Assembly (NCBI GenBank): GCA_973895155.1 | Contig: OZ316893.1 | Location: 4,578,977 to 4,642,976, forward strand | Source: Marsupella aquatica | Lineage: Eukaryota; Plantae; Marchantiophyta | Direction: 5' to 3' | Length of the DNA: 64,000 nt | Part shown: piece after piece, positions 17,956 to 61,367 of the stretch | How positions within the stretch are numbered: the first letter of the stretch is position 1 | Layout of the letters: every line of letters begins with the position of its first letter | The notes under the pieces: generated by a model | Told to the model about the DNA's origin: nothing | The model's database searches: none | The model's input: only the letters and a program-made list of their open reading frames with translations | Position numbers and translations under genes: made by a program

Positions 17956-18039
17956 CTCTACAATTATGATAGGTGTCTGGAATGACTATTGAGTATTTTA
18001 ATCTTCATATCTCTTGGGTTCTTTAATGACTCTATAAGT

Positions 18040-18911: not shown

Positions 18912-18932
18912 GGGCCCTGTTTTCTTCTAGTG

Positions 18933-25554: not shown

Positions 25555-28046
25555 GTTCAAGTCTGCAGAAGGTAAGTCTTGTCAGATGCAATCGATAAGT
25601 TGATTGATCATGAGTATCAAGTGTTAAAAAGCTTTACTCAACTATTGGAAGGAAGCAATTCATGGAAACCAAGGTATTCGATTTGCTATTGTTATAAGGC
25701 AATGAGGATCCCAACTGCACTAATCCGACGGTATCGCTTAATTACTTCTTAGTGCTGTACTCTTCTGGGCGTCACTCTAACTCAAGGGTCGATGACCTAC
25801 GCGCAACCTCACAAACTTGGTGCTGTTTCAGATGGACCGCTCGGTCGCTCTTTCAAAACCGAATGCAAAGATCTCCTCCCGTCTTTCCTCAAATAGGGCA
25901 CGCTCAAACAGCTGGGTCAGTTGTCAGCTAGAGACATGTTTCACAGAGTGGTTCAACAAGCGCAAACACTAAAGGTGCGACTTAGGTTTATCTGACGGGG
26001 AACGTGGATAGGAAGGAGACCCTGGTTTGTGAGCTTGATAATTATTTTGTCATATGTATATGCTCATATGCTATGTAGTCACACTTAAGCTTGCATGTGG
26101 TACGTCTCTCCTGAATCGCACATCCAAACATTATGCCTTATTCCATAATTTAGTTATGTAGTCAGACCTAAGTTTGGAGGCACTTCGTCAGCCTCACATC
26201 CAAATTAACATTATGCATGCCTTATCACATATGGTATCTATTACCATGGTATTTGTTTCCCTCCGTCACCAGGTATTAATTTCAAGAACGGACCAAAGAA
26301 GGGGAAAGAACGATTGTAGAGAATGAACGGGAAGGTCAGAGCACAATAGACTTACACGTACTGCTAAAACCATACGTAACTGCCCATGGACTGTCACAAG
26401 ATGGTAAATGGCAAGTTACATGGGAAAGCTAACTCATAGTCCAGGGATGCGATTAATGCTTCGTAGCGGGCGCGCCTACATATAGAATCTACCCCGGGGT
26501 CTACACCTCACCAAGCCTACCTTGCTCTAACCATAGGTAATTAAATCAGGTAGATCAGTTAGGAGTCTTATAAAGCTATGTAAAAACGATATGGAAAGCT
26601 GTAAGGCGAAGCAACACCATTTGTACAATTACGCGGCTCAATTTTGGTTGGCATTGCATCAGGCTTCTGTAAAGGATATATCCAGCCATGGGCCTACACC
26701 TCGATCACCTGTCACATTTCGCTCTAACCGTAGGTAAACTGATTGAGCCACATGGATGGCGAGTCTCCTCTACTGCAGATCTTAGTATCTCCTCGATCCA
26801 ATAAGGAGAGACTGATCCATTACTCTGGACTATGGCTTGCATTCTAGCTTTGAAGATCCCGTGTAGATCGAATTCACGTACTACTCCAATGCTGCCCTAT
26901 TCCCGGGGGTACAGTTGTTAGTCAATTTCCTTCCTGTGGTTGGTTAGTATTTGATTCAACTACGTACCTTGTCCAGGGAAGGATGTTAGGAGATGCATTT
27001 TTAGTCAATTTCATCTCAGTCGTTGGTTAGGGTATATTTGCTTTAATACGTGGTCCAGGTAAGGAGGGCACTTGCTTTTTTAATTGGCCATTGATCACTT
27101 CGGATCAGTTCTCCTCTCCATACGCCCGAGCAGAGTATATAAGTAGGGCCGCTTGTCATTCTCTCTCATTCTCCACTTCTCTCTCTTCGCGCCTGGCTCA
27201 CTCACCCAGAGCATCGATCACGTTGGTGCCCATCAACTTAACTCCTCACCTTATTCTCACCAAGAGCTGCAGTAGTGTGATCGATCGAGCTTGAGCTTTA
27301 GTTTGTGCTTACCTCCTAGCTGGAACTAGCTAGTACATGCAGGGAAAAGTCCGAGACTAGTGCACTAGCAAAGGTGGGCTTTTGGACCAGATTGGAGGAC
27401 CAGTACGAATTTTAGTCTCCTCTTCACGCCCTTTCAATTAATTGATTCAGGTGCAGTCTCTACTCACGGGTGATGCAGTTTTGCAACTCTCCTCCATGCA
27501 TGACCTCGAAGATTTTGCAGGATTGACTGTCGATCGGTAAAAGTTGAGAATTAATACATAATCTAATGGCAACCATGCATGCTTTTGTTGTGGGCCAATG
27601 CTATTTACTTCCTCTCTGGAGTGATTCTCCTTCTAGAACATCCCAACTGATTTCATTTGCTTAGGAGACCCATAACCCAGATTCTTATTCCATTATCTTT
27701 CATTCTAGCAGGTTTGGAATTTTTTGTTGTTGTTAACTACTGCATTCAGCTTGCACTAGCTTTATTCGTCGTTTCCTCCATATATATATCATATGTATCT
27801 TGCTCCATATGTTACTCTACCCAAGAAGCTCTTCAATTCTCCATGTCGATCTTTGAAGTTTGCGTGGCAGAACTCTCATACCTACGTGCTTCAGGGCTAC
27901 GGAAGATAATATTGATGTACAGCTATGGCACTTAATGTCCAATGAGCTATATATGTACTTTCTCTAATCTGATTGAATGTGGTAACATATGTCCATAGGT
28001 TTTCCGATCAAAGACGTACATTAATTCTCCAAGGAAGTCACAAGAA

Positions 28047-29165
28047 ATGTCTTCACGCATGGAAGAGCTGCTTCCAGGGATACCAGACGACGTGACCTTG
28101 ACCCACATTATCACGAAGTTGCAGTGGACAGACTTTCATGAACTGCATTCAGTGAGCCCGAATTGGCAACAAGCAATTCAAAGTCGAGAGGTCTACAATG
28201 AGAGGATTCGGTCCCAATCAACAGAGGAGTTTCTGGCCGTGAAACACAGCTATGAGGTGAAGTGTAACGATATCCTCCACCGTGACTGTACATACAGAAA
28301 CGCGATTTCTCTTTATTCGATGAGGGACAAACAATTCTACAAACTTCCTCCAGTCCCACATCTTACTGGTGACAAGGAAAGGTTTTGCCAGTTAGTTGCA
28401 TCCAGTGGTAGCTTGTATGTTTGTTCTCACAAACAGAAAAATTTACTACACAGCACAGAAAAGAACGGCAATAACCAAAGACAGATGCTGGATGAGGAAG
28501 AGGAAAACGTTTATGTGCTAGATCTGACTGGGCCAGGGCTCTGGGAAGAATGCAAAAGGATTCAAGGACCAGAACGGGACAGCCCGCGTTGCTTGATCAA
28601 TTGCCATTTCCGAGCAGAAGGTCAAGCATGTCATGAATTTCGATGGAAAGGGCCCGGGGACTGGTGCCCAGATCGCTTCAAGTCTTTCTGGAGCGTAGTT
28701 GATTCAATGACACTAGAAGAGACTTCTGAGATGGTTTCTTTGAAGGAAGTTCCAGAAATGTGCTTCACAGGTGACCCAAGAAGGGTCAAAGTAGAGCTTA
28801 AACAGTACGTGATGACAAGCCCTACCAGTGGATACCCGAAGGTTTATGTCCACGATACCAATACCAACTCATGGACACACCAGCATTCCGTTTCATGTAA
28901 TGAAATTGCTGGTGAACTTGGAGACGATCCCCATAGCCAGCTCAGAATTCACCCGACTTTTGCAGTGCCTGTTGGAGGCGAGGTTCTGACAATAGCTCGC
29001 TGGACAAGAGGGGGACAGAATAGCTACGAGCTTCTGCAAAGCAAGGGAATGGATGCGACAGAAATTGTCTGGGAGAGAATCCCACACACTTTTCCCATCG
29101 AACCAAGCCTTTTTTTTTGGCATATGCCCCATTTTGCTTTGAGCAATATGAAGCAGCTGGTCTAG
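28047..29165 (+). CDS. F-box protein with a degenerate kelch-like C-terminus (intronless CDS, host gene)
   Basis: N-terminal LLPGIPDDVTLTHIITKLQW...L.SVS.NW..AI.S..VY..R F-box. Kelch-like strands KLPPVP...LYV and VYV.DT.TNSW. Upstream TATA-like tatataa at ~27136 and 5' UTR introns. Confidence 0.85.
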   Translation: MSSRMEELLPGIPDDVTLTHIITKLQWTDFHELHSVSPNWQQAIQSREVYNERIRSQSTEEFLAVKHSYEVKCNDILHRDCTYRNAISLYSMRDKQFYKLPPVPHLTGDKERFCQLVASSGSLYVCSHKQKNLLHSTEKNGNNQRQMLDEEEENVYVLDLTGPGLWEECKRIQGPERDSPRCLINCHFRAEGQACHEFRWKGPGDWCPDRFKSFWSVVDSMTLEETSEMVSLKEVPEMCFTGDPRRVKVELKQYVMTSPTSGYPKVYVHDTNTNSWTHQHSVSCNEIAGELGDDPHSQLRIHPTFAVPVGGEVLTIARWTRGGQNSYELLQSKGMDATEIVWERIPHTFPIEPSLFFWHMPHFALSNMKQLV

Positions 29166-32100
29166 ATGCAACCTTTTGCCCCGGCCTGTCTTGAGTTGCA
29201 TTGGAGATTTGGCCAAGAGCAAGTGATATAAGGGAACAATATATTCGTGCATAGCAAACTTTCGATAGCAGTTTTCCTGTTAGTATTCATAGTAGTAGCT
29301 TTCCAGATATCCTTTGCTCGGATTGGCGGGATTTAGAACTGGCAAAGTAACTGTTACTATTGAATACCTACCCAAGATAAGTAAATACATGCTGTAATTT
29401 TGGAAGTTGAGATATTATTTTTGTTTCAGAGTGTTATGGAGATTTCAATCGACACGTACTAAACAATTCCATTTGGATGTTGGATTTCCATGTTGATCAA
29501 AGCAGAAACTTTTCACATGTATACCATATTGTAATATTTATGCCCATAAGCTGTAGCAATTGTAGAGTGGTATCCACAAGAATGAAATTAAATGTTTATG
29601 CATACACTGAGTAGATGTCTGGGAAAAGGCTGACAGCATATTAATATATAATTATCCTGCATTTGCTATAGCACACAACACAATCATGGAACAAGTCACG
29701 CAGTAGTTGAAGTCTAGTAATGCCTTAATTTCCAAATAGTAACAAAAGTTTCTCGCAAATTAAAGTCTTCGATGCAAATTTCTGTGCTCTAAAAGTTTCA
29801 CTTACTATATATACTATTTAATGGATGTCATTGGCAACCAATGCCACAATTGTGCAGTCAATTTCACAAGGCTGTGTACTGTAGTAAAAGCATTGTAGTT
29901 ACAACTTTCCAAATAGTTGAAAACATGACTCCCCAAAACTTCACCAAAACTCAGTCAACAAGGTGTGACTAACATGACACCAACAACCTTGGAGTCACTT
30001 ATTTCTGAAGGTCTTGTACGTACAAGCGGGTGTACAAGTCATGTAGAAAGGCAAGGTCTCACAATGGGTGGTTTTCTTCTAGTGACATGATATTAGGAGA
30101 TTAATAAAACTTGGTTACTTAGATTATAGACTTTTGTCCTAGATGGTGCACTCACCTTAAATACAGGGTAATTCCAAAATCATCTAGCGCCACAGAATTC
30201 AGGAGAGTGAAGACCCATATATGAAGACTCCCACAAATGACTCAGTTAAGGTCATCACGTTGAAGTTATACAAGTGACTCTACAATACAGCATTATGTAT
30301 GAGAGCACAACATTTGAACCCTTCACCCTAAACTATGGAATCTATGGGATCCGACCCAATACATATGATTTTGGATACACCTATATCACTAGTACATTTT
30401 TGGCCCTTTTTCCGATCCTAACAACATCGGACCCCTTCAAAAATTCTGACACGGAAAAATGACACGTCCGGTGTCATTTACTTTGCACTTTCCCATACTT
30501 TACACATTGGATATTGACAATCAGACACCCATCGGACTTTCCATTGCTGAAACCATCGATAAATCCGTTATTGGATGTTTTGGATAATTTGTGTCCGTTT
30601 CTCATTTCATCGGATACTAAGATGCTCCGGCAAGGTAAATATCAGGGGTCCGGTGTATTTTATATGGGATAATCTGACGTAAAATATATCGGAGTTTGCG
30701 TACAAGCATTCAGTATTGGAACATCCGTAATTGTTTCCCAAATTGTTTGTAACACCAATTGCAATGCTGAAAAATATCGAACATTGTGAGGAGGGGTCCA
30801 AAATATTTTACATTGGAAGTTCTGTAGCGTGTGGTATTGGATATGAGCTGGGTCACTGGCTCGACTAATAATGGATATTTAGGGTTTGTAGGGGGTTTAA
30901 TACCGGATTCATGGGAATCATTTGGGGGTTTAGGTTTAGGGTTCAGGCTCATTGACAAAATAGGGTCCAAAGAGCATGCTCAAAGCAAGGTAGTGGTTTA
31001 ATTAAATATCAGTTTTCACAATGGGGAACACTCCAATATGTACAAAATGAAATGGGCCTAGATAGGCAGTAGACCCCCGGGGTCCTCACTTTTTAACTTC
31101 CGACCCATCACGCGCGAATAAGTGTATGGTTTTTTAATTCAATTTTTTGGAATACTTAAGAATTTTTGTAGAAGAACTTTAGGGGTTGCGAAATACATAT
31201 TGCAACTTAGAAGTCTAATAGGGGTGCAAAAAACCCCACTTCTTCAATGTAAGCTGTTAGTTTAAGATAGGGCATGTTTGGCATGGACATATATGGGGAA
31301 CACATGTCCATTAATAACTGGTCCACGTGGCACATCCATATCTAAAGAGGTTACTTAGTGTTATAGGGTTTCATGGTGGCATTGAGGGACATATTAATTT
31401 GAATTATCTGGGCAAGAGGTGGATGATCCGAGAGGGGGGAAGGGGAAAGGAGAAGGCTTAGGGTGCAAAGTGTCAAACCCATTCTCCCACATAGACGTTG
31501 GCCTGATATTGGATTGATCGCAATTCCATCCATCCGTCCATTTTTGGGGATCTAATGGTTTACATTGCCTGGCCAGTTTTAGGGAAAATGTGATTGGGAC
31601 CGTTGGACGAAAGACTCCTGTTTTGCAAAGGGAGTGCACAAGGGAGCCGCGAAGTAGGTGCTTTGTGCTCGCTGCCTCGTGGTTTTTTTGAAGGAACTGC
31701 ATGCGCATACGTATGGTGAGGGTGCTGTCTCATTTTTTTCGAAGGAAATCAAGCTACGCAAAGCTTGGGACGGTGCTGCCTTGTTTTTTTCATAAGGAAA
31801 TGCATGCGCAAAGTGCCTTTGCAATGTTTGAGCTGTAGCTAGATGTTCCCTATATGAGCTGAAGGGTGCTGCGGCCATTTTTTAGCAATCTCAGGGGTGC
31901 TGCGGCTGTATTCTGTTTGTCTGAAGGTTGTGGACCTCAAGCAATCTAGGTGCTGCGCTCGTGTTCGGGCTGGGTGCTGGGTGCTGCGGCCGTGATCGAT
32001 GTGGGCTTGGGTCAGGTCTAGACATTGCTTCAATCAACTTTTTTGAAGGAATGCTTACACATAGGCTGGGCGCTACGGCTCTATTGATCGAAGGTGGCAA

Positions 32101-32480: not shown

Positions 32481-33839
32481 AGGGCAGAAGCACAGATCGT
32501 CTTTGCAATTCCAACTCAAGAGGTATTTGAAATCTTGGAGCCAAAATGCTGTCGGCCCATTCTATTTTGCTCAGTTTCTCCCTGCTATTCTTCTTCTATA
32601 GACTTTGCTTGCAGTCAAATGATTTCTGCTCTCTCCAATTGCTGAGTATGAATTGATTTTTCTCCTTTCGTTTGAGCCCCGGTTTGAGCTCTTTCCTTCT
32701 TCTCGAGCTCCTCCCGGCTTCAATTGAGCTGCCCATCAAGCTGCTTCCTCCAATCGTGAAGCTTCAATTGAGCTCCTCTCTTTGTTTGCGCTCCTTGCTT
32801 CCATCAAGCACAGTCTTGATCAGGGGGCGATTTTGTATCAGGCTGTTGTGATTGGCCTGCTGTGATCGAGGGTGATTACAAGATCTAGAGAGTGAAGCAT
32901 AGGAATATTGTCATAGTGTAGACAATCAGTACACAGACCTTAATAATCTCTTCCAGAAGGTCCTCCAGATGCATAATGTGAAGCATTCATAGTGCCCTCG
33001 ATTAGCAACAGCTGCCGTGGCTCTCTCTATATAGGCTGTCGAAGTCACTTGTCTGAGGCTCTCACTACTTAACTCATTCAAATACAATGTTGAGCATTGG
33101 AAACTTTGTAATGACTAATCTGCCTTATGAATGGTGATTGAAATGATTTATACTCAAAAAGCAAAGGCTTTGATTGACATTCATATGGCATTGGGTTGCA
33201 CGGTGTTGTGCAGCTGTCCAATAAGAGGAAAGTGCAGCTTGTTTTGATTTGTTTAAAGTCTATAATCTAGAACGTACCAGTAGTTGCCAAGGTATGTTAA
33301 ATTTTGACTCAGTTACTTGAATGGCTAGTTTGATTCCCTGCTTAACTTTATATCCAGATTTCCATGCATGACTGGAATTGTGTACTGTCTGTAAAAGTTA
33401 GCTACTGTTCCTTCTTCTTCTTGTGTATTTTGTTTTATTGGATGGTTTATTGTAGATCTTCATGTGCCTGTGTCTTCCTTTTTCTATTTAAACTCCTTCA
33501 AGCAATCATTTTCCAGCAGGAATGAACCTGGCTTCAGTTTATTTCCTTCAGATCAAATAGTCAGCTCTTCATAAATTAATATGCTAACTCAACTCTTCTT
33601 GCAGGATGGATTTGTTGCGGGTGTAGTGGAAGCATTTCAGAAGCTTCAGCAATATACAGTCAGGGTTCACATTCAAAAATTGTGGAAGGAGCAGACCTCA
33701 GTCAACTATCACCAGTAAGTTGTTGCATCTCTTATTACATCAGAGATTAAAGGTATGCTTATGTTCAGGATGCTATCAATGTAGAATGGATGTTGAGGGG
33801 ATGTAAAATGGATGCTGAGTGAATGCATCTGTTTTGCAG

Positions 33840-34338
33840 AGGTAAATCACTATCCAGCAAGTTGAGATGGCTTCTGATGTGCAAGTTGAGATGGCTTCTG
33901 ATGTGCCAAGGATTGACATATTTTCCCATACGGAGCACCCCTTGCTGTTTCTTTTGTGATGAGACAGATGATGTCGTCCTTTGTGATGGGCCTTGTAGTA
34001 GACATTTTCACTTTGTTGGTGGAAAAGGTATGCAAGGACCTGCTTGCACTCCTGTCACATTGCCTAAAAACAATGATTGGAGGGCACCATGGGTTTGTGA
34101 ATTGTGTGCTGTCAACAGAGCTAGATGCTTTGCTTGTGGACTCATTGGCAGATTTGAACATCCCACAGCACAGGAATCCCTTGTGCTCCATTGTGCCCAC
34201 CCTCATTGCTTTTCTCATTACCATCTTGGCTGCCTTAGGGTGCTACTTCAGGTTGGGGCACTGCCTCATAGGTCTCATCCAGCAAGTCCAAACAACCTAA
34301 TGTGCCCAAGGCATCACAAGGAAGATCTGCAAGGTTAG
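33840..34338 (+). CDS. Second EDM2-type composite PHD protein (last exon, ends after the CPxH motif; possibly frameshifted near 33940)
   Basis: CFFCDETDDVVLCDGPCSRHFH...C...WVCELC....RCFACGLIG...VLHC.HPHC..HYHLGCL...MCPRH. Shares CDGPC.RHFH with the 8852-9511 protein. Confidence 0.75.
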
Positions 34339-35233
34339 GAGTTTGAAAGAGGGGAATATAGGGGGTAAGTAGGGAAATTAACCCCAACGTACCTCATGCT
34401 CCCCGCCCCCTTACTATTGGGGGTAATTTCCAGAAGATGAGTTGGGAATTCATTCCCCTCTTATCAAAGCGATTCATGGTAAGGTATTTGTCCCATATTT
34501 AGTAGGGAACCAAATCTCCTTGTAGTGGACGGGCTGCTATGCTTGTAAATTACCTATGTCCCTAGGGTAATCATTCGGTGTGTCTTGCAAGTGCATAACC
34601 TAAACCCTAAACACACACAAAAGAACACAAGAAAGAATACCAAAGAAACAGTGGACATGAGAAACAGTGGACATGATTCAAAGATGAAGTGTTCAATTCA
34701 TAATGCTCCCGGAGGAGGCTCGAACAGGTACATATGTGGCAAGGAAAGACCCACTCAGGCTCTGTCCTCCTAGTCTCATCGTTGTCCTGCTGCACTAAAA
34801 TCACAACGGGAGGAAACGAGAGTGGCACTGACAAGTAAACGAACAGTAAGAGTGTCACTGCCTAACTGACTCAAGCACCGAAGAGAACCTTAGCTAAAAC
34901 TCATCTAGCTACTCTGATGCATTGAACCTCTGTTGCCGATTCTCTCCCAGTATGAACTCCAGATTTTGTTCCATGTTATCTTTTTTCCCGGTTGCACAGC
35001 CATACATGATGTCCCTGATCATCACTCGTTTTTTGTTCTGCACAAAACATGCAACATGCGTACAATTAGAGACCACATATATGGAATTCGTAATTCATCA
35101 TTACTAGTGAGTGCGTGCAGGAATTGTTAGGCAAAGCACGCGAACTGAAATACCCCAATAATACCCCAATAATACCCCATACATAGAGTGACTTTATTCA
35201 CCTTGTAGTCCACGCAAGCACTTCTAATCTTAC

Positions 35234-38200
35234 CTGCAGCTCCAAAATCTTCAACTCAATCGAATCTTTGGCGATAAACCTGACGACTTTCACCGGCCTT
35301 GTTTGCCCTATACGATGTGACCGATCGACGGCCTGGTCCTCTACCGTGGGATCCCACCACCCGTCTACCATAAGAACATGTGTAGCCTCAGTGATGTTGA
35401 GTCCTGTGTTCGTTGCCATCAAGGACAAGAGGATAATGCTGATCTGCATGAAATGAGTAGAAACAATTTAGTTAGAATATATATAAAGAGTTTACCCTTT
35501 GAACAAATACAGACACCGATCTGCACGGATAATGACGGTTGTACCTCTGGGGTCGTCTTGAAATCATTCAAGGCTTCTTCTCTGACATTGGAATTCATTC
35601 CTCCATCAATCCTTGTGAACTTTAGACCAGCCTTCAGAATGTGTGGCTCAAGCATGTCGAGACACGAAGTCCATTGTGAGAAAACAAGAGCCTTCTGCCT
35701 GGGCACAAAGCTTTTGCAGCTGCCTTGTCTTGTAGTGTCCAGCGGAATCGACTTCAGGTATTCCAAGACTGCATCAAATTTTGGAGAAGGTGGGTGTCGG
35801 ACATCATATTCTCTTCGCGCCTTCCCTTTTGACTCCGCACCACCATTCACTAGCCTCAAATCAGCTGGCCTGTATAGGACCTGGGCTGTCACGTATTTTG
35901 AACATTTTGCCGATTTGCAAGTTCCAGCTTCCCGGTCTATTGCACAAATGCCACAGTATACATGGCCACAGCCAGAAATTTGAAATGGACTTCCAATCAA
36001 GCCCCCCTGCACAATCCAACCGTTAAAGTGAGTGCGTGCAGAAATTGTTAGGCAAAGCACGTTAACTGAAATACCTCAATCATACCCCAATCATACCCCA
36101 ATCATACCCCATACACAGAGTGACTGTACTCACCTTGCAGTCCACGCAAGCACTTCCAATCTTCAATTGCTGAAACTCTGACACGAGTCGGGCTCGTTGA
36201 GGCTCACTAAGGGGCGTTCTTTGCACTTTGTTCCCGATCCCCTCTTCGCAAATTTTACATAAGGAAGGAAGTTTCAGGTGCACTGCAAATTGTCCCAACC
36301 GGAGCAGAACGCTCAACACATTCGATAAGGCACCTCTTTCGGCGTCACAGAATTCCTACAACATTATAGGCACATTAATTGCCACCGAACATACACCTTC
36401 AAGGGATCCAATTGAACTCTCATACGCCTTCAACATTGGGGATTATTAAGAGCCTTATGTACCTTGTATAACTGAGCCTTACTCTTTTCCTCCTGATCAA
36501 AATAAGCGTTTCGTTCTTGCTGTGTTCTCCATTCAACAATTTGCACCTCGATCGTCTTAGGGGGCAGTGGGAGTATGCCTGCATGTAAGCACAATGGCAG
36601 GGTAAATGCACAATTGATAAAGAAATCAGGCTTGGGATTAAAAAAAGTGAACTCTACCATGATATATGCATGCACGCTTACTTTTGTCTCTCCTGAGCGC
36701 AATCGCAACCAAGTGTTTCGAGAGGATGCCATTCGCTATCTTTGGCCTTGTCTTCAGCAGCTTCTTTAACTGCGAGAATTCCTTCCATTCTCCTAGAGGA
36801 TAATACCTCAGAAAACTGAAGTAAGGAAACAGATCAGAAGCCTCATTCTATATGGGTGTACCGCTTAGGCACCACCTCCTCTCTGCCTTGAGACAACACG
36901 AGGCCTTGAAATTTTGATTAGTTTTATTTTTCATGACATGACACTCATCCAGGACTACTCTAAGCCAATTAATCTTAAATAGTGGACCTGCAAGTCTAGG
37001 TTTTTACAGGTCTCATCATACTCCCTTTTGGCACGCTGGACGTCTTTGGAGCAATGGGAGACTCCCCTGTCATGATTGAGTACGTAGTGACAACCACGTC
37101 ATGGCTTGAAATAAAGTTGATGTCTTTATTCCTCTTGTTGTGGTAGAGGAGGACCTTCACTTTTGCTATCTTGGAGGTCCTTGTAGCTATTTCTTGGCCC
37201 CATTGAATCACCACGCTGGCTGGACAAACAACTAGAGTTGGCCCACACTTATGAGGGCGATTCGCGAGAAATAGCGCCATGACATGCATGGTTTTCCCCA
37301 TTCCCTAAAAAAATCCAAGCCAAGAAAACGGTCAGGGACCCACTCACTTGCAGACAAGGTGCGTGCGTACCCCTAACATACTCCAAAAATACCCCCAAAG
37401 TATCCCGTTGAATGAAAATAATGAGTGTGACTTTGGCTTAATTTGGGGGCTTTTGTACCTGGTCATCCGCCAACATCCCACCAATTGGAGAGCTTTTTCC
37501 GGATTCGCGTTCCAACATCCATGCAAGACCAATTCGTTGGTGTGGATATAGAGCTGTAGTCATTGTACCAGGTGGAGGGCATGCCTCCTCTGTCAAGTGA
37601 GACCCTTGGATATCAATCTGCGGATCCCGCTCACAGCCAAGTTAGATATGCTTGAACATTGTTTATGAAAAAACAGTAATCACACAACAAAGGAAAAAAA
37701 ATCGCTAACCTTTCCACTCTCTGTGGCACACTCTTCCCAGTGAATGTCTTGTTCTGAATGCTTGTCATCCTCCACTTCATCTTCTTCTTCTTCTTCCTCT
37801 ACCTCTTCCTCTTCCTCCACTTCGATAGCCCTCCTCTTCGCTGGTGAGTGACTGCCACTCGGAATAGAGTCCTCTTGCCCTCTCTTTGAAGCACAAGGCA
37901 AATTTGGTTGTCATGAAATGTGACTCGTCCTAGCCTACCATCCCGGACTCTTAGTTGGAACATGAAATAGAACAGAAATCGGAGGTGACCGTGGTACTTC
38001 TGATGCAATTGCACCCGATGATTTGTCCTCCTCTGTAGCTGAGACCTCTACTTTTGATGTTGGTGCAGCATTTGGTGCCTCTCCTTCTAAAAGTGACATC
38101 TCTTCTTCTGATGCCGGTACCTCTGCCAGTACTAGTGGTGCGGCTGCCTGTAACTCTACCAAAACTAGTGAGTCACCTCCACTCGACATAGACTCCTCTC

Positions 38201-39695
38201 GCTGTATCTTTGAAGTAGGATAATGAATTGGGAAAGTACCTGCTTCTGCTGGTACTGCTACTGGTACCTCTACTATAGCTGGAACACCAGGATAATAAAT
38301 TGGGAAAGTACCTGCTTCTGCTGGTGCTGCTACTGGTACCTCTACTATAGCTGGAACACCAGAAACTGGCGGTAACTCTGAAATTGGGCTACGTTGTGAT
38401 GCCTCTGCATCATAACCTGCATGTACCCTGGCACCAAGACCTACCAGAACCTCACAACATCTCTCGTCACCTCCACTCTCACCTTCTCCACTCGATGTCT
38501 CACTGCCAACTTGTTCTGAATGCAACCCAACCTGCCTTTCCAATTCTAGTATGCGGACTCTCTGTCTGTCGTTTTCTTTCATCAAATCGAGGACCAATTT
38601 TTTATGATTCTCCACTGCTTCTCGTAGCATGTCCGATTTTTCTGCAAGATCAACCTCTAGCGCACGTATGTGCTGTGATAGAACACGCATGCACTCTGGC
38701 ACAGAGGGCGGCGATTTGTGCTCACCCTGAGGACATTTATGTTCATCCTTGGAGAATTGGGGTGCAACCTTCGATGGCTGCCCCTCACCGTCAGATGCAC
38801 CATCCCCTTCCTCATCCTCTCGTGAGCCATCTTCTCCTTCCTCGTCCTCTCGTGATCCGTCATCCCCTTCCTTGTCCTCCTGTGAGCCACTGTCCCCGTC
38901 CTTGTCCTCTTCTGAGCCAGCCTCCCCTTCCTCATCCTCTTGTGAGCCATTGTCCCCTTCCTCCTTGTCGTCCTCCTCATGATCATCTTCGTGTTGTTTG
39001 ACCATAAGCTCCTCCAGCGAATACCCGTAGTGTACAAGAATCTGCGTTATAGCAGTGCCACAGTAGCAAGGAAGTCGTTCGTCTACGACACCATTCTTCG
39101 ATAGGTGTGACTTTAACGTGAGGATCTCACTAGTCAGATTATCGTACACCAAATGTGCCCAATCGGGCTTCACCACGGGAGTTTCAACTCCTCTAAAATG
39201 ATCACGTACCCTAATCGTATCCCACCAATACGCCTAGTATACCCACATGTCTTTTGAGGTGACTTGAGTGGGTTTGCTCTTGCCTAAGAGCAATTCATAA
39301 ATCGCCCTGATTATCCCACACCACTGCATATATGGCGCTGTGATTTTGTCTAGACTGTATGGGTTGCCTTTCATCTTGGCAGAAAACATGGAATTTAGTT
39401 GACCTTGGACCAACCCAGGTTTAAATCGGGCCCATTCTCCAGACGAAAAAGCAAATGCAGCTCGCAATACCTCTCTATTGAATGTGTGAGTTGCACCCCG
39501 GAATGACACACAGTTTTGACCTTGATCATACCCTACTGCAAACTCCTTTACAGCAGGAATTGCAACTATGGGCCAGTTGAGTTCAAAACATGGAACCAAA
39601 CCAGCTTTTCTAGCTAAATTATGGTCTGTAGGGGCCATCCCTAGATAATGTCGTATTACCATCCCCGAGCATGACTTCCAAATCATCTCCGTCAC
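35234..39695 (-). pseudogene. Fusion pseudogene: retroelement-accessory (Transposase_32/PMD-like) domain, acidic and coiled-coil linker, then SNF2-RING-HelicC ATPase (Ris1/FRG-CHR27/28-like)
   Basis: One reading frame from 39695 to 37710, broken only by TAG/TGA stops (39234, 37935, ~37911). Phase-0 intron 37709-37618, then EEACPPPG...LYPHQRIGLAWMLERE...GGMLADDQ|GMGKT, TLVVCPASVVIQW, VVVTTYS, WLRVVLDECH and WCLSGTPI*N. RING motif CxxC...CGHVYCxxC...C..C. HelicC motifs KALVFSQWT, RIDGGM, GLNITEA and DQAVDRSHRIGQTRPV. Frameshift near 37000. Confidence 0.85.
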
Positions 39696-40444
39696 GACTG
39701 TACAAACAAAGCAGGCCTTAGTTGCGCCATTCTAACAATCGATCAATATACTTCATGCGGAATTAAGAACCAAAGGAGTTGAGTGAAAGAGGGGTACATA
39801 TGATCTGTGATATCCTCGTCGCTCTGCATCAACAATGCGACCGGCGCTGGACGATCATGTCGATGAACCATACTTTCACCAATCCTCCAACATCACCCCA
39901 CGCTCGTCGATACTTACTTCCATCGCTAACACCCCAAGTGTTATCCAATGGCAGACTTGTCAGCCACAAAGATTTACGAAACCTACACAATCAAAGACTG
40001 GAGCTCAGGAGCTCGCACCATTGCCCAAAGCTTATAAGGAATTCCTCATAGGGCGTTCATGTGCGCAGTGGCATGCATCATTTAGTCACTGTAGTTTTAG
40101 TAGTAGATCTCACAACAAAGATTCTGTCTCCGATCGGTGGCACCACCCTTTCACTCCCCCAACGTACATTTTATCACGTTCCCAAGTAACCTGGTAATAC
40201 CCATCCATTATGTCACGTCCGACCCAGAATCCAACGATATTCGTGACCCGTGCCGTCCCCGATCATACCCCGTGCGAAGCACCATAGTGTCACCATCACA
40301 TGCTCACGTCTGACTTGCATCTCACACATCCTACGGTCTGCATCCTGGTCAGTATTCAGTTATTGACAAAACGGCGCCTCTCAAGTGTTGTCATATCCCA
40401 TAGTATCTTTCTTTTTGTCGTACTTGGGACTTTCCATGGTATTA

Positions 40445-43400
40445 CTATACGGTATTCCACCGTACAGGGATACCATGGTGAAGTTCAATTGCACGAAAAT
40501 CAAGCCTCAACGCACCTAATCTTTGAAAGGTGATGTGTTCATCAATTTGTGATGCTGCCTTGTAGATTGGGCAACTTGACCGAGAACCCTGTACAGACAA
40601 CCAGCTCACACCAACCTTCCCGAGGTCCTTCTCAGTATCATTTGCATTGTGCGATTCTGCCATGTCATCCCCTCCCTCCTCCTCCTCCTCCTCCTCCCCG
40701 TCAGAAGCACCGTCCACTCCTACATCCCCCGCTTTCATTTCCGTTGCCGCATCGCGCCTGGGAAGGAGGACTTCCCTTACAACACACAGGTCAGGGACGG
40801 AAAGTGAGTCCGATATTGCAATCATTATGTCCCCTACCTCTGGGAAAGGAGGGCAGTTTGCAATTGTGGTAGGGAGTTCCCGTACTAAAGTATCTCCAAT
40901 CTCCAAGGCTACAACCTCCCTCCCGCCTCTTCGAATTGGGAAGAACTTGTGTAGAATTCTTGACATAGGCCTACAGTTGTTGCCATGTGCGTGATATACT
41001 TTTGGTTCCAAAAGAGTAAACAGGGAATACTCATCTCGTTCCCAAGACAGTAAATTTTGCCGAGGATCCTGTGTATACTGTTGTTTATACCAATCTGCCT
41101 CAAAGAATATGTCCATGTGGCCATCGAATTCGTGCATGAAAATCTTTTGGAGTACTACTTTCCAGTTTTGAGGATGTGAAGCATCTGTACTCCCATCTAC
41201 CAGTACAACAACGTGATCGCCAGGCCTGTACACTTCAGCTCTCCACACAGTTGATCGCAATGGAGTGCAAGATTCACTAATTTTGTGGTCCTCACTGATG
41301 TTGAATACTCCAACATCTGTCCAATGCTGCTTCAATGACATCCTGGCGGACAGCCCCAGTTTCTTTGTCAGCTTCCTGTTTGAGCCTATGCCAACCCCTT
41401 TGCTCAACAACATGTGCTTGCAACCATATGACTCCACAGAGGATATCATACTATCCCACAATTCCATCGCTAGAATTTGACTTGAAACTATTGGCACCGA
41501 ATTCCCGTGCCAGTGTGGGCATTCAGATGGTGGTATAGTGACTCTGCACCTGTGCTCCTTACGATGCTCCGCAGGGACACGCAGGGACGCATGAACTTTC
41601 TCCAAAGCCCTCTGATGAGGGAAAAGTCCATCATCATCTTCCCAAATGTACGACGATATTTCTGTGAAAAAGCGTCGTGCAAAATGAAGAGAATAAGTGA
41701 CTTCCTGGTCCTTCTGATTTGTTCTAGTGCGTCCATAGTCTGATACCATCCTCTCAAAGCGGTAGCACCAATAAACATAGTGTGGGCCATGTCGTTCTAT
41801 CCCATCAAATATCTCTCCGCTCCCTAAAAATTGGGATCAAAACACATTGGGATTAGAACATCACCTCAGTGCAATGATGGATCGACCAACAATGAATACC
41901 CACTGTCATCATGGTCATGTAGCAAGTGTAAACAAAATGACTCACCAGCAACATGCTCTAGAATTGCTCCATTTGGGCCCCAAGCTCGGGGGTCTCACTA
42001 TATGGGGACCTCCCCATCACCTGCGACGTTTTTAGGCCTCGAACCCCCTCAAATATAAGAAAAAAAAATTCCAAAATTTGGATTAAAAAGACCCTAATAT
42101 TCTTATAAGTCTCCAAATTGAATTTAAAAGACCCTATTGTTCTTCTGCAAAAAATTTTAAGTCTTCCCTTAGAACCAATAAAATGACCCTATCCTTCGTC
42201 GCACGTGATATGCCATTTTTGTGGAAGTGAAACCCCCGAGGGCCCAAGCCTCTTCTGAGCGAACTCTCCAAGAAGCCAATAGAGACCTGCCTTTTTTCAA
42301 TGTGGCTGTAGTCCAACCCTCTTGTCTACTTCTGATATAAAAGAGGCGTGCAATCTCTACCAAAAGAATCCCAAGCGTCCCAAGGTCAGAGTGGACACTA
42401 ATGTCCATCTGTTGGAGGATATGAGGCAGACAATACAATATGAATCGCGTGAACTCTTCAGCCTTGAAGTATCCCAATCTTTCAAAAGGTTGTTTAGGCC
42501 ACCTTCCATCAAAACCTCTCGGTTTCCTAGCAGTAACCTCCTCCAGAGCATCTTCAAACTGTTTTTGATGTTGACGGGGAACACTCGAAACTAGAAGCTC
42601 GCAGTATTTCTTGAAAAGGCACAAGGCAAGGATATGCATTGTATCATACACCAGATCCTTGCTCAAACAAAATCCAGTAAGCTCATGTAGTTGCCAAGCC
42701 CTGGTCATGTTTGAAATCCCGCACTCCCTGCTTATCTTCATCCTCTCTGCAATTGTTCCTGCCCTGGTCATGTTCCTGGCCACCTCCCTCACCTCTTCAA
42801 TATTCCGTGTAGGTTGTGGATATCTCATCTGCATCCTATTGTTGTCATACACAGCCCTTCCCAGAAAACCTCGGGGTTGTGATTGGTCAGTCTCCTTTCG
42901 AGGATGATCAAACTTGCACTTCATCCATCGAGTGCTCATTTTACAATTCCTACAAGCGAAATAACCTGTAACATTCCAGCCCCCAAATTTACATTGTGCG
43001 GGATGATCTCCAGTGAAAACTGCTAACAGTGCTCGTAGCACACACCTGGAGTCATTCGGTACATTATCCTCTTCAGCCAATAATTCCATAGGGTAATTGT
43101 AATCCACCTCTATCCCATCCACAAACAACTCCTCCAGTTCTCTTATGAATGGTTCTAAGCATCCAAGCATTTCAGCTTTTTTTTTCCTACGTCGTCATCA
43201 TCACATGGCGGGATAAAAAGAACAGGGATAGGTGGAATTTTGGTTTGAGACCCGGCGCTTAAAACTTGGACCTCTACAGTCCAGGTGCTTTTGTGGGCAG
43301 TCTTGGTAGACTGAAATCCATCCCAGTGTGCCATGAGTGCAATATTTCGGGGATCACCCTGCATGCGGTGGGTCACACTAGTTAGACAAAAGTTACTCTA

Positions 43401-44616
43401 TCATAACCCATAAATACCCTAAAAATACCCATACCATACCCTGGTCATACAAAAGTGCGCAACAACAGTAACACAAGAAGAAATCACTAACCTTTGCAAA
43501 TTGTTTCGGGGCCGTGACTCGAGATCTGCAATCTGAGCATTGGAAGTCGTATTGTTTGCTGACATTATCCCAATTGGCAGTATCCAACAACTCAGGACAT
43601 TTATTTGGTGTTGTTGAATAGCAAGCATAACAGTTTCGGCATAACACGGGAATCTTAAACTGTGTGCTAGTGTCCCAAAAGTAGGATAGCTCGGAAGCAC
43701 GGTAGCCGTCCCACCATTCCTTGTACACAGGTCTGGGCATGGAATCCTTCTTAAACCACTTATCTTTGTCCCTCCACATTGCCTGGAACTCATGACAAAC
43801 AGATCGACTGCTACATAACTTCCGCAACATGGGACCAATGGGAAAATATTCAAACCGGAGCATCTCCTTGCGAGCCGTGCTGCAACCATCCAATGGGCAA
43901 CGTTCCAAACAATGCAAACAATCCCTGGCTAGATGCCACTTCGTCCCTGCAATTGAACAACTGCACTTCAATCCAGTTTGGACATTGTAGTCATCTTGGT
44001 GCAACGGCGGTAGGACTACGGGAGCATGCCAGTTTGGCTTCTGTCCAATACACATTCTCCACCACTGCGTTTTTGGCATACCATATGCCTCAAACGTGCC
44101 ACACAAACCCTTGAATGATGACAATGCATCAATTCCATGGCGTCCTCCGTCCCACGTCACACCAGCGTGCCTCAGGAGTGCGCCCAGTCCTACATTTGCC
44201 ATGTCGGATGGAGGGTCGGGTGAAGGTGTCAAATTTGTAGATGGGGGAATCTGAATCTTCCCGAATAGCATTTTCAAAATGCTATCCTGCAATGCCTGAG
44301 GCATTTTAGCCTCGTCAAGCATTGATTGTAATCTCCAAGTCTGTCGATAAATTGCTTCGTCCATGGTCAGTATTCTTCAAGGCATTATGTGGATACCATA
44401 CTGCATGGGAAGCGTCTGACCAATCCCATCAACATCCAGGTCCTGCAAATCGTTTCTTCCAACGTCATCATTCCTATCTCCTCCTGTAAGTGCCCTGTAC
44501 AACAAAGTTGGGGCCGTATATCTGTGTTTTTGTCGGGACATTTGAACACCTAAGAAGCTGGCAGAATGACCGTCTTGATGCGATAGGCCATGGCCATCCG
44601 GATGCCCACAGTCCAC
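40445..44616 (-). pseudogene. Divergent CMC/EnSpm-like DDE transposase with a BAH-like C-terminal region; disrupted
   Basis: Motifs YFPIGPMLRKL, EWWDG, DPRNIALMAHWDGF, LEPFIRELEELFVDG, GDHPAQCK.GG...ACRNC, DTMHIL, FKAEEF and HGPHYVYWCYRFER. The C-terminal part reads YRPGDHVVV...W...LQKIF...FFEADWY. Lesions are a frameshift in the A-run at ~43177-43185, a stop at 44377 and the MITE insertion. Confidence 0.85.
41985..42240. mobile_element. 256-bp MITE with 15-bp TIR and 8-bp TSD, inserted in the transposase exon
   Basis: TIRs ctcgggggtctcact / agtgaaacccccgag. Flanks gccccaag (41977-41984) and ggcccaag (42241-42248). Removing it restores RSEEAWGPNGAILEHVAG. Confidence 0.9.
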
Positions 44617-46632
44617 TAAAAACTTTGCAGGAATGACCCTGCCTGTCTTGTCATAGTTTATGTTGTCTTCGATTCCTTGGGCTCACAAAATCATACCCAT
44701 CCTGTAAGCGCAAACATTTGTACTGACAGGTGCATTGTTCCTTCGGTTCTGGCGTCATGGTGCACACTGCCATTCCTGTGTACAAAATATTCCAACGAAG
44801 TCGATTCAGAATTCCTCAGGAGGTGGATGTGTGCGGTGGGATTGTCGGAAGGACGATTGGAGAAGTTCATTATTATGTTGAATACTGTGCATAATTAGGT
44901 GGGGCCCACGACATTCATGACTCCGGGAAAGCATTCAAACGTCCTTGTTGCATGTGAGCGAATGTGCTAGGTGGGAAACCTTATCATTGACCCTGCAAGC
45001 CCGGGGCCACTGCCTCTAATCCCTCTAAGGCAGTCACTCACCATGTTGAATTCATGCTTATGCTATTCAAATTTGAAGTTCATGTGTATGGTTTTCTTTC
45101 TTGGGCAGCTTACTCCGGGAGTTTATTGACATATTTGGTTCAAAGTGCATGTTTATTATTATTGTTGGGACATTGAAATTGTTGTTGGGCCCTGTCTAGG
45201 TCTTTATTTATTTTGTATCCGACCCATCCTTTCTTACAATATGGTCTATGTAAATAGAATTGTCATCCAAACTTTTTAATGGCATTCCAGTTCACCAAAT
45301 GCATACCAGCTGGTTATAGGGGCTGGCCACGACATCAGCCATCTCAAATGTCACAAGATTAGTGTCACACATACTAATTATTGTGTGACCCTGAAATACC
45401 CTGCTGCCTCAATCTTACGTGCTCATGTCAATTTGTTTTGGGGTTAAGGACCCCCAATGTACCATTTGAAAATAGGTCATTGGTTGATACCCCCTTCTTA
45501 AATGAAGATAGAGTAATGGCGCAATATATTGAAGTTTAAATAAGTAATGTAGACTATGGAATATTCCTCTAGGGATATAGTGTAGCCTAATATTCCCTTT
45601 GTTAATTCATTTTAGTACTAGTTTGTTTACCTTCATGAAGTCTATAAGCTACCAGAGTTTTAGACAAATTAACACACGAAGAACAATAATTTTCTAGTAC
45701 TAATTTACAAAAGGATCTAATGTGATAGGATAAGTAATGTTTTTACATGCATAACAAGGCATTTTTAATGCATCAAACGATATACATGGGGGGGGTTTGT
45801 TCTCAGGGGGGTTCACTTAATGTAGCAAAAGAGGGAGGGCCGAGGGATTCTACTTTGATTTTGATTTTATAATTACGTACATAATCCGCTTTTCAATTCG
45901 TCAAACTTTAATAAAGTTTGAAATGTAATTGAGCTTCATTGTAAAATGTTAAGTTACACACATCAATTCAGAGTCTATCGGCTTGTCACCAAAAGTAATC
46001 TAACTTACTTGAATATAGAATGGCATGTATTTACTCTCGATCACTTCTTATATAGTGTCACACTTGTTAATGATGGTCAACCTTCAAAATCCTTAGATTA
46101 CGGATTATTAATCCTTAAATTACCCTTCCATTGACATATCATACTAGCTAGCCTTCACTACCTGTTCTTTGCACAAACATGAATAGAGGATAGTACGTAT
46201 AAATCATGACAAATGGCATACATGCTTATTATTTGACATACTGGTCATGAGTTTTCTCATCCACATGATGAGCCATGGAGTTCCAGTTTAATTAAGAGGT
46301 TTCACTCGATCTACCTTGTAGTTGGCGCTTTATAAGTTCTATTGTTAAGGGACTTAGACAATTGGTACCTACCTAGCTACCTCCCAAGTTCACCTTAGGA
46401 TCACGGAACTTGTTATACATGCATCTGCGAACATGCATGTTTGATTTAATCACTCTCTCAAAAAGGAATAGGAAGGTCACAAAACCCACCAATCATTTAT
46501 TGACATGTGGCAACCAATGAATTGTGTGATGAAAAGTGGGACTTTTTGAATTGTTACCCCCTTACTTCATCCCTACTTCTAAGCACTTCCTTACAAATTA
46601 ATAATGACTGAAACGCCCCATACTTTGCATGG

Positions 46633-46910
46633 TGCACATGATGTGAACATTTAATTTGTGGAAGTGACCCGCACCCCCACCCACCCTGAGCTACCTCCAT
46701 ACTTCATCCTTAAATTAATTAACCTTCCACATATGCATGCATGCATATATGTGCGCAAGTCTTAGGGTTTAGGGTTTAGGGTTAGGGTAATGAATAAAAG
46801 GCCCCTTACTTCGATCATTTGCACATGATGTGAACATTTAATGGGTGGAAGTGACCCGCACCCCCACCCACCCTGAGCTACCTCCATGTTTCATCCTTAA
46901 ATTAATTAAT
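46633..46910. repeat. ~90-bp direct repeat pair flanking a short telomere-like (TTTAGGG/TTAGGG) tract
   Basis: tgcacatgatgtgaacatttaa...cacccccacccaccctgagctacctccat...aaattaattaa at ~46633 and ~46820. ttagggtttagggtttagggttaggg at 46762-46787. Confidence 0.8.
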
Positions 46911-48609: not shown

Positions 48610-51233
48610 TGTGACCAGATGCAAGCACAACGTACGACGGTTTGGCATTTTGGGCAGGAGTCTTTTAGTTTGTAAGGTTCCTACAGGCCATACAATGACC
48701 TGCCATTTTGGTTTGATATGGCATAACGTGTATGCTTGGTTTGTGGGGCAAGTGGGACCAGAATGTATGTATGTGAATGGTCGACTTATTTTCAATGTGC
48801 AATAAAGGGGGGCTCAGACCTGCATCTGTTAAATGAAGGTTGTGATGTCCACGATGCGTTTGTTAAAACGTACCAGAAAGTAATTGGGTGTTAATCGGCT
48901 GGTGTTTAATCGATGAATGGGTCTCGGCTAGTGTTTAATCGATGAATGGGTCTCGGCAATTTTTCATTTTGCAATTTGTGCGCAATTTCTTAAGGAAAAC
49001 TTCCAACTTCAAACTCTGATACAGGACAGCAAATAGAACTCAGCCACTATAGCGCTTTTGCGGATCGCAGCGACATCATGTAGTGGGTCATCATAGTTCA
49101 CGGAGAATTGGGTAAGGGCCCCTCCCCAATCTCTGGACATCAACAGACCAAAAAAATAGAGAAACACCTGAAACTCATTGGGCGGATCTGCGGCTCCATC
49201 GATCCCAACGACCAGGAAGGGAAAAAAAACACAAGCATACAGACAACTGTAAAAACAACGTGACCCCAAACAATACATTTATGGCAGATGTGTTCTTGTT
49301 CCAGTAGGTGTTCATTATATTTATGGAGAATTGATGGGTAATGTATGTAAATGAATAATGGAGTTTGCACTTTGAAGGCCGGGGCAACGCCTGCAACTCA
49401 ATGAAGAAGTAAGTAATCATGAAAAAATAGACGACAACTTCCATATGCGTAAAATAGGTCATAAAATTATCTTTTGCGACAACTTACCACTGCATACCGG
49501 TTGGCAAGGGGGGGTGGACAGCATATTGGCAACCCGGGCGGTTGCCACAAAACAGGCATCAGCCTTGGACGATGCCACAACACCTTTGTCAGCATGGCGC
49601 TCATGATGTATATTGCTTCAACTGTAATCTCAAAGACTCAAAAAGTGTGGTCTGTTCTAAATATCCGAGTTCATTCTCATACTAACCTTGTAACATTAGT
49701 GTTGGAACGAGCATAACCACAAATACCCCAAACATACCCCTCACATACCTCGCACATACCTTGCAACGGCAGAACAAACTACGTCACATCCGCTTCTTCA
49801 CTTCCTCTGATATTAATGCTCTACCTGTTTCATATGACCTGCGTAGCCTGCAAAATATTCCACATACCATATATAATTAATGATGCATGTTGCATGAAAA
49901 TAGATCACGGAGTCTGTATCATTGAACATCCAAATTCATACCTGTTCCATCGATCAGAGCGCACCAGACACGAAGAAGATATATGGTTTAGTTGGTTTCT
50001 AAGGATCGGTGTACAGGGGGTGGCTGGCCAGCCTTGGGATCGGTGAAATCGATGACGAGTTTCAAGGATGCGTAAATGGTACTGTAGGATATTTACTAGT
50101 AAGCCCGGGCTAAGGAAGAAGTGGGTGGTAAAGGGTTAGGTAAGATCTGCTTTCGCTTTGAAGTATACGAGAACCCTATATTTGACCTGCGAGCATATTT
50201 CAAACTCAAATCATAAGCAAAAACTATCGCAATCAAAAGAATTGACTCCGAGTGCTGCCAATAATTTCTACCAAATCCAAAACACATTACAGGATATCGC
50301 ACAAGGTGGCATGGGATTTGACAGAGAATTCTCCCACGTAGTACAAAGATCCACAGGTGGCCTGTGGACTTCCACGTTTTGGATGATGTTATCGGGCGCG
50401 AACGTGTAAAACTTATTCTGAAGTTGTCTGAGCTCGCATAGAGGAGAATCGAACACTTAGAGTGGGAGGTGTGAGCTATGGTCAATCACCTCCACTCTTT
50501 AGTACCTTTGGAATCGTTCCCGCGGAAACGATCCCTCTAAAACTGGAGGGAAACTGAGGCCAGCCTTATCTTCTTGGTATCCTATGTAGGGTATTTGCCA
50601 CATAGGCTTCTGATTGATCAGAAGGTCATCGCAGCTGGCGGCTTTACTTTCCCGAAGTGCAGGCTGCGCTAGTCTCCATGGGAATAGTTTGTATCTTGTC
50701 CTAACTTGTCATAGTAATCCAAACTGCGTGGACTTTTGAGTTAGGCCTAGAATAGTAGAGTGAGGGAAAATTTCCCAGTTGTATAATCATGACCGCAACT
50801 CCTAAATCCCCGGCCTAAATCGGCTGGATAGAAACAAAATCAGCGATGCGGTTGACGCAATGGACTGCGGATATATCGCATTTTGAAGAGTGACATTATT
50901 AATTTGGACCAGGGCGGTCAGTTCAAAACTGATGAGGACCAGCTTTGAGGCGGGCAACGCATGCACTACTTGCCTTGCAACCTTTACCTTGAACATGCAC
51001 GGGCGGGCGATTCAAATGGACGATGAACCCGCAACCTTTACCTTCAACACGCGCGGGCGGGCAATTCAAACGAACAATGAACGAGAGAGGCAGTGAGTGC
51101 GCTTGGTGTAATACTCCCTTTTCGTTTTAAGTCCCCCTCTGTATTTCACTATTTCTGCTACGCGTACGCCTGGAGTGAAGTCGATCTTCAAAGTTTCCTA
51201 CACTTGATCGACGTTGATTGAAACAGAGTTGCA

Positions 51234-61200: not shown

Positions 61201-61367
61201 GCCTACCTCTGGAGCAGTGTCCTGCATTGGTGCCGTTGCCGTTGCCGTTCTCTTTTCCTTCTCCAACAATTTCAGCAGATTCTGCATGCCTGGTTGCTGC
61301 ATCGGCAAGTCCTCCGTCCTTGGCCTAAACACCTGCTCGATTGTAGGACTGTCGGGCGGGTTGGGTT
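58265..61367 (-). mobile_element. Retroelement-like unit A (reverse orientation) with a frameshifted acidic/coiled-coil ORF
   Basis: The terminus TGTGGTGCGTCCC interrupts the upstream ORF. ORF pieces 61332-61075, 61012-60419 and 60506-59400 are homologous to unit B. Confidence 0.7.

Follow-up and report, generated by a model that had tools for sequence, protein, structure and literature searches.

A decayed EnSpm/CACTA-type transposon of the liverwort Marsupella aquatica in which a VANC-fold domain is predicted to be fused with a CHR27/28-like SNF2-RING ATPase

We analysed a stretch of 64,000 nucleotides (nt) from the liverwort Marsupella aquatica (assembly GCA_973895155.1, contig OZ316893.1, positions 4,578,977 to 4,642,976 of the forward strand), hereafter the window. 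It contains a decayed copy of a repeated DNA transposon of the EnSpm/CACTA type, the accessory gene of which is predicted to splice a VANC-fold domain to a CHR27/28-like SNF2-RING ATPase. The nearest precedent for this fusion is VANC, the accessory protein of VANDAL transposons, including its fusions to Ulp1. The window copy is dead. Methylation-driven deamination accounts for most of its decay, and the family from which it descends is intact at the positions tested. A self-targeted anti-silencing remodeller is our best reading of the fusion protein, and we hold it with moderate confidence.

Results

Structure of the fusion gene

Contigs from four of the six runs that cover part of the stretch were compared with the window; those called X1 and X2 come from two studies, and contig depth is not usable as copy number. 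L001 is a distant relative of the element. The fusion gene lies on the minus strand, and in our corrected model it has nine exons running from 39871 to 34907 and encodes 1326 amino acids (aa). Its parts are the following (window positions throughout).

39802-39871, minus strand: likely first coding exon (MVHRHDRPAP...EDITD), its donor mutated in the window copy; from contigs of X1, X2 and X4 and the phase-1 intron of L001
37710-39697, minus strand: long exon with VANC-fold domain, acidic linker, probable coiled coil and low-complexity part, and three stops; from translation
39006-39686, minus strand: putative VANC-fold (VANC/MAIN-PMD/Transposase_32-like) domain of ~227 aa; from 21 homologues, a structure model and the match to VANC21
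37618-37709, minus strand: fusion intron, GT-AG, phase 0; from sequence
34907-37617, minus strand: CHR27/28-like SNF2 ATPase with internal C3HC4 RING in seven exons; from profiles and homologues
37617-37459, 37304-36682, 36578-36463, 36355-36134, 36006-35545, 35443-35234 and 35037-34907, minus strand: the ATPase exons

The translation of 39695-37710 gives 662 codons with exactly three stops (39236-34, 37937-35 and 37913-11), in agreement with an earlier note on this DNA, made from the letters alone, which had read an exon of ~660 codons through three stops. The gene extends past the bounds given there, with its last exon (35037-34907) below 35234 and its likely first exon at 39871-39802. The in-phase join to the ATPase exons that the same note had proposed also stands as a prediction: the intron at 37709-37618 is 92 nt long, of the GT..AG type and in phase 0 (GGAAAG/GT...CAG/ATT). 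Seven of the eight introns are GT-AG, and intron 1 begins with AT in the window copy; X1, X2 and X4 read G at 39801, which gives a GT donor for this first intron, and the domain of L001 is likewise preceded by a short exon and a phase-1 intron. The exons after the fusion intron encode EEACPPPGTMTTALYPHQRIGLAWMLERE...GGMLADDQ/GMGKT, then an inter-lobe RING and then the helicase C lobe. The predicted protein begins with the conserved domain (~aa 28-254). Next come an acidic linker and what is probably a coiled coil (so judged by eye in the window protein; a long helix in the homologue model), then a low-complexity part and, from aa 687, the ATPase. An in-frame fusion of the N-terminal domain to the ATPase by splicing is thus predicted.

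The locus might instead give a VANC-like protein and an ATPase separately and make the fused form rarely or never. This would fit the absence of any spliced read, domain homologues that are annotated or called without an ATPase, and the distant intronless stand-alone version of the domain at ~62.4 kb of the window. Against it, the intron is canonical, and a separate ATPase promoter is disfavoured because the ATPase exon lies only 92 nt past the upstream exon, which leaves no room for a polyadenylation site plus promoter; moreover, this exon starts upstream of its own first Met, in conserved sequence homologous to CHR27/28. Separate products are therefore, in our view, very unlikely, and the fused form is the one considered below.

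The N-terminal domain

A phmmer search of 1.84 billion representatives returned 21 homologues of the domain, the top ones 35-44% identical over its length and the longest of 479 aa; among the 10 that were looked up, the sole named homologue is from the liverwort Calypogeia fissa. The AlphaFold model of the window domain has a mean per-residue confidence (pLDDT) of 88 and a predicted TM-score (pTM) of 0.86, and that of the homologue P0005 has a pLDDT of 82. Among 48,161 chains of the PDB, VANC21, with which VANDAL transposons bind DNA and counter silencing, was the only one to reach Z>=2 with the window domain (VIA-align Z 7.1, root-mean-square deviation (rmsd) 4.6, 199 residues aligned, 4% identity), and P0005 aligned with VANC21 at Z 8.1 (220 residues, rmsd 5.0). 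The match spans the whole domain. Foldseek gave no match at E<=0.001 in PDB or BFVD; its TM-score was 0.33-0.34 for VANC21 versus at most 0.17 for the others among the listed rows.

These comparisons bear on two earlier proposals, that the domain belongs with the PMD proteins MAIN and MAIL1 and that it came from a retrotransposon. The PMD family is PF10536, and membership by sequence was rejected, since Pfam PMD matched none of 27 aligned domain members at E<=10 and the window protein had no match at E<=1. At the level of the fold a link does stand, as VANC and the PMD protein MAIN are reported to be structural homologues (PMC13547354). Transposase_32 matched weakly (2 of the 27 members, best E 0.0046, below the cut-off), and the atlas leads for the domain are Transposase_32 (0.89) and ATHILA (0.88), both <0.9. 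The domain is better described as a putative distant member of the VANC/MAIN(PMD)/Transposase_32 fold group, as judged from the models. The retrotransposon origin is not established: no LTR-like (long terminal repeat) sequence lies around the exon, the Transposase_32 match is that given above, and the domain is preceded by an intron both here and in L001. An LTR-bounded insertion of the exon was rejected on the same lack of repeats and because an X2 contig continues into the transposase.

The domain appears to be a mobile module, because it is preceded by an intron in L001 as here and exists as an intronless stand-alone version at ~62.4 kb. That distant, ATPase-free version (E 1.3e-7) is held by a 586-codon intronless open reading frame (ORF) at 61732-63492, which lies in an inverted duplication (84-88%) at 59400-64000. 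Word-based searches for longer proteins, which are weak evidence, gave none for the N-terminal domain or for the exon of RING and helicase C; scans for related loci found one in metagenomes, ending within the domain, and none in viral contigs or prokaryote genomes.

The SNF2-RING ATPase

The assignment of the motor to the FRG/CHR27-28-like SNF2-RING ATPases, a subfamily also labelled Ris1, is supported by its best matches, its LADDQG motif and its C3HC4 RING between the lobes. The SNF2 N lobe is recognized by Pfam (E 1.2e-13), and Helicase_C and RING lie in the following exons. Read through its stop, the N lobe matches 1885 proteins; most of those with names among the best 120 are CHR27/28-like (34-45% identity), with up to 155 bits for single-domain CHR27/28-like matches versus 59 bits for Rad5, and LADDQGLGKT occurs in 107 of these 120. 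Walker A, DECH, motif III, motif VI and the C3HC4 ligands are all present, the RING ligands aligning between the helicase lobes with a Pfam zf-RING_5 match of only E 0.016 on one exon. The SNF2 phylogeny that had been suggested was run as a quick tree of 33 rows with no plant RAD5/RAD16 rows; it is uninformative on subfamily nesting and places the window ATPase on a very long branch (end branch 5.0). Because this tree lacks proper outgroups, the placement rests on best matches, motif and introns.

Read-through gene calls expose the host introns. They lie after LADDQ (P0048, P0064, P0093), after RRTK (6 of 10 proteins fetched) and after DPD (P0137), and all three positions, as read from these gene-call artefacts, match introns of the window. 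This agrees with the proposal that the gene was captured with its introns, and the ATPase was probably acquired as DNA, introns included, from the CHR27/28 lineage of the host. It is ~35% identical to angiosperm homologues over 600 aa. A liverwort host gene is absent among the ATPase matches, so that a close host donor may exist, and tblastn against plasmids gave generic SNF2 matches only. The features in common with FRG1/FRG2 (CHR27/CHR28) are thus the best matches, LADDQG, the inter-lobe RING and three apparently shared intron positions, whereas the low identity, the long branch, the replacement of the host N terminus by a VANC-fold domain and the encoding in a repeated element set it apart.

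CACTA elements capture host fragments (PMC13317346), and the ATPase could be a neutral passenger of such a Pack-CACTA-style capture, of no benefit to the element. Despite its divergence from the angiosperm homologues and its branch length, however, it retains every motif as well as the RING, and its frame is open at the breaks that were tested, which makes a passenger most unlikely.

The transposase and the element

The fusion gene had been placed inside a DNA transposon, and this holds in part: a transposase gene adjoins it directly upstream on the same strand, and the termini of the element were not found. The features around the fusion gene are these.

40445-44364, minus strand: divergent EnSpm/CACTA-type transposase gene with a frame break near 43180; from Pfam Transposase_21 and motif order
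33823-34338, plus strand: convergent NSD-type PHD-finger exon, perhaps the element's third gene; from Pfam PHD_NSD (E 7.9e-7)
30387-30693, plus strand: CACTA-like end with TCGGA/TCCGA subterminal motifs, membership uncertain; from repeat and end searches

The transposase gene (~44364-40445) matches Pfam Transposase_21 at E 7.9e-6, below the curated cut-off, and has its frame break in an A-run. It carries the EnSpm/CACTA catalytic motifs RNIAL..WDG, DHPA..CRNC and WCYRFER in order, by comparison with a canonical CACTA element at 2-9 kb; the middle motif alone is significant by itself (E 7e-5), and the first and third are not. One X2 contig (38333-40500) runs from the long exon into the transposase ORF, of which it covers the last 56 nt. 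The contigs cover exons and introns alike in many short branching pieces (264 in X1, 395 in X4) and, because they are fragmented and branching across both, they point to a repeated element family. A host gene merely flanked by a transposon is disfavoured by these deep, fragmented contigs over exons and introns and by the contig link to the transposase. The CACTA-like end at 30387 has no findable partner end, so its membership in the element is uncertain.

The canonical CACTA element lies at 995-9523 on the minus strand (Transposase_21 E 5e-66, DUF4218, DUF4216). Beside it, at 8852-9523, is an NSD-type PHD-finger gene related to the one at 33.8 kb, and the same PHD cargo thus accompanies two divergent CACTA lineages in the window.

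Decay of the window copy

That this copy is dead, as had been noted, is plain from four stops in the fusion gene (39236, 37937, 37913 and, in the ATPase part, 36850-48) and one 2-nt frameshift at ~37000, also in the ATPase part. The family is in better condition. Between 36840 and 39250, all 37 listed differences are identical in the deepest contigs of X1 and X2, which have sense codons in place of the stops at 37937 and 37913 and restore the two missing bases at 37000. At stop 39236, the X1 and X2 contigs across the site each hold one unlisted difference (7 versus 6 listed; 18 versus 17 listed), and close homologues of the domain carry Trp at this position; for these two reasons the stop is probably private to the window copy. 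The concern raised earlier, that other copies might consistently keep the stops, is thus largely allayed: the frameshift and two of the three long-exon stops are absent from the deepest contigs, and the third stop is cleared by inference only.

The 13 listed differences in the ATPase exons comprise four that are silent, three to host-conserved residues, one that gives an HP motif (by eye), four that are neutral and one away from consensus. The family contigs give LRLRQ, WWNP and Ile, as found in 102, 102 and 106 of the 111 host homologues, respectively. For the mutation spectrum, 61 of 71 distinct listed rows were used, 10 of minor share being dropped. Among these 61 listed copy-specific changes, C>T accounts for 23 at CG, 15 at CHG and 2 at CHH, and because 38 of the 61 are C>T at CG or CHG, the family is regarded as a methylation target. 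Low-depth contigs at 35056-35240, 35571-35617 and 39668-39972 are ~10% diverged and lack the intron duplication described below, and they point to a second subfamily.

GGGTAT arrays as candidate targets

GGGTAT is the top 6-mer of 33-45 kb (17 versus 5.2 expected), with all copies on the G-rich gene strand. In the 2615 nt of non-coding DNA of the element it occurs 13 times versus 1.1 expected; with the duplicated intron removed, it occurs 10 times versus 1.0, and none of 200 simulated sequences was as extreme. The arrays have an 11-bp period, and three are singled out here.

36071-36111, minus strand: intronic GGGTAT array, 11-bp period, candidate binding sites
35106-35231, minus strand: 85%-identical duplicate of 36027-36163 in the last intron, with a second GGGTAT array; skipped by minor contigs
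43414-43441, minus strand: GGGTAT three times, spaced by 11 bp, within an intron of the transposase gene

One array was born by duplication of an exon end plus intron, and X2 is without one unit. In L001, GGGTAT is absent and TTCATG occurs 8 times versus 0.8 expected (0 of 200 simulations). The C-terminal read-through tail of P0003 repeats every 11 residues (VHVWFTYGSRM), and another family member may therefore carry the L001-type motif as an array in an intron. GGGGTAT at 11-bp spacing, and 158-bp tandem repeats carrying the motif, are also found at 49717-49765 and 55118-55886 on the minus strand; these sites are near a long unassigned ORF at 56.8-58.4 kb and possibly mark a related element or targets in trans. 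The motifs of VANC are arranged in tandem arrays in introns and intergenic DNA, are family-specific and are bound by VANC proteins (PMC5735166).

The fusion could also be real and self-targeted and yet serve transposition, as a TnpA-like helper that binds the element; its RAD5/16-class motor and its RING would then make chromatin accessible for excision or integration, or direct repair of the excision gap. CACTA elements need the DNA-binding accessory protein TnpA (10.64898/2026.08.24.746577) and a TnpA-like gene was not recognised here, and Rad5 (59 bits) is a relative of this ATPase class. However, the motif arrays are not confined to the ends but occur in internal introns, as those of VANC do, and the fold matches VANC21; a transposition helper is, on balance, rather unlikely.

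Discussion

The likeness to VANC of VANDAL elements consists of the fold match to VANC21, the position in an accessory gene of a transposon, the probable coiled coil, and family-specific tandem motifs in introns, and the VANC-Ulp1 proteins of KAONASHI/KIU show that a VANC can be fused with an enzyme captured from the host (PMC13317346). The differences are an EnSpm/CACTA-type instead of a Mutator-like transposase, an identity of 4-6%, and a SNF2-RING ATPase as the fused partner. VANC has been described as dicot-specific (PMC13547354), whereas the present element is from a liverwort, where motif binding and hypomethylation are predicted by analogy. MAIN/MAIL1/MAIL2, PMD proteins borne by transposable elements (TEs), Transposase_32 and ATHILA are linked to the domain by the reported VANC-MAIN structural homology and the atlas leads, and MAIL proteins sit at specific DNA motifs (10.1101/2024.09.27.615353). 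They differ in that no Pfam PMD match exists here and that the known PMD fusions are to MULE (Mutator-like element) transposases or a phosphatase (PMC5418596). DNA transposons with chromatin cargo are represented by Plavaka PAG2/PAG3, TET/JBP elements and HarbingerS SET, the likeness being EnSpm-superfamily elements with chromatin-modifying accessory genes; in the parts covered, these texts name no SNF2 cargo or VANC-fold fusion (10.1101/2025.02.11.637652; PMC12730594). In the covered domain tables of a 1007-genome survey of terminal inverted repeat (TIR) elements, SNF2 has no match and Helicase_C one, in a Carex CACTA element (PMC12973397). In the literature searched, which did not include Repbase, the VANC21 structure paper, subscription journals or bioRxiv supplements, we found no CACTA-type element in which a VANC-fold domain is fused with a SNF2-RING ATPase.

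We propose that the VANC-fold domain would bind the GGGTAT arrays in the element's own introns and intergenic DNA and that the coiled coil would oligomerise the fusion protein, as has been predicted for VANC21 (PMC13547354). The tethered ATPase could then move or evict nucleosomes or silencing proteins, which might also be ubiquitinated by the RING. Methylation would be lost over the cognate family only, and the transposase would be expressed. The earlier note had seen in the fusion a host silencing remodeller re-addressed by a TE-derived domain. The fusion and the CHR27/28-like motor uphold the re-addressed remodeller, whereas the VANC21 match points to anti-silencing. Anti-silencing is favoured over a re-aimed silencer because the only solved fold match is an anti-silencing protein of a DNA transposon. 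More tentatively, a CACTA element of a non-flowering plant might encode, in a single protein, a sequence-addressed remodeller and E3 ubiquitin ligase, in which a VANC-fold reader co-evolves with its own intronic motif and is fused to a host motor of the RNA-directed DNA methylation (RdDM) type turned against silencing.

Several points weigh against this proposal. FRG1/2 promote methylation and are required for RdDM (a title in the reference list of PMC7865151), and MAIN/MAIL1 silence TEs as well as act against Polycomb (PMC5418596; 10.1101/2024.09.27.615353). A fold shared with VANC21 carries no proof of function, Z values of 7-8 fall in the range that the tool calls common or borderline, the identity to VANC21 is 4-6%, and by Foldseek alone VANC21 reaches E values of only 2.0 and 3.4. 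None of the 21 domain homologues has a SNF2 domain, and several look like single-exon gene calls; because no homologue carries SNF2, the fusion is seen only in the present element family. Its splice is deduced from the genomic letters, and none of the six runs covering part of the stretch is on record as RNA. Sense codons in contigs were observed directly at neither 39236 nor 36850, and the majority change C876R departs from the host consensus (C in 92 of 111). Searches for a TIR pair or target-site duplication around the element gave chance-level pairs only. The non-coding segments for the GGGTAT test were picked after the motif was seen, its tandem copies are non-independent and inflate the statistic, and a similar motif occurs outside the element at 49.7 kb and 55-56 kb.

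Some of these points would suit a re-aimed silencer or a decoy, in which FRG-like pro-methylation activity dampens the element's own family, or the protein poisons the host FRG/RdDM complex genome-wide. The best matches are CHR27/28, whose requirement for RdDM is named in the title cited above, and the silencing of TEs by MAIN/MAIL1 (PMC5418596) has the same direction. A self-silencer, however, is hard to reconcile with a young, homogeneous family, and a pure decoy with intact Walker A/B and motif VI; we regard both as quite unlikely.

How VANC binding erases silencing has been named as an open question (PMC5735166). The fusion names a CHR27/28-type ATPase as a candidate effector of VANC-type anti-silencing and makes it direct to ask whether the fusion protein needs ATP hydrolysis or its RING, and whether VANC21 depends on FRG1/2 or their relatives. 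The fusion further hints that VANC-like systems exist beyond the dicots and in elements other than Mutators. If the self-targeted anti-silencing remodeller is real, it would hint, as a Rosetta-stone fusion, at SNF2-RING remodellers as the means by which VANC and PMD proteins act, and it would offer a one-gene, motif-addressed epigenome editor.

Other features of the window

At 13200-20500 is a tandem array of ~578-bp units, which contain an internal palindrome (CACTCCAAAGTCGTACGACTTGGGAGTG); 83-bp repeats come after it. An intronless F-box/kelch-like ORF of 388 codons at 27999-29165 on the plus strand is probably a host gene, as judged by eye and from weak Pfam matches only. At 46602-46909, two 123-bp direct repeats (89%) flank a short telomere-like TTTAGGG run.

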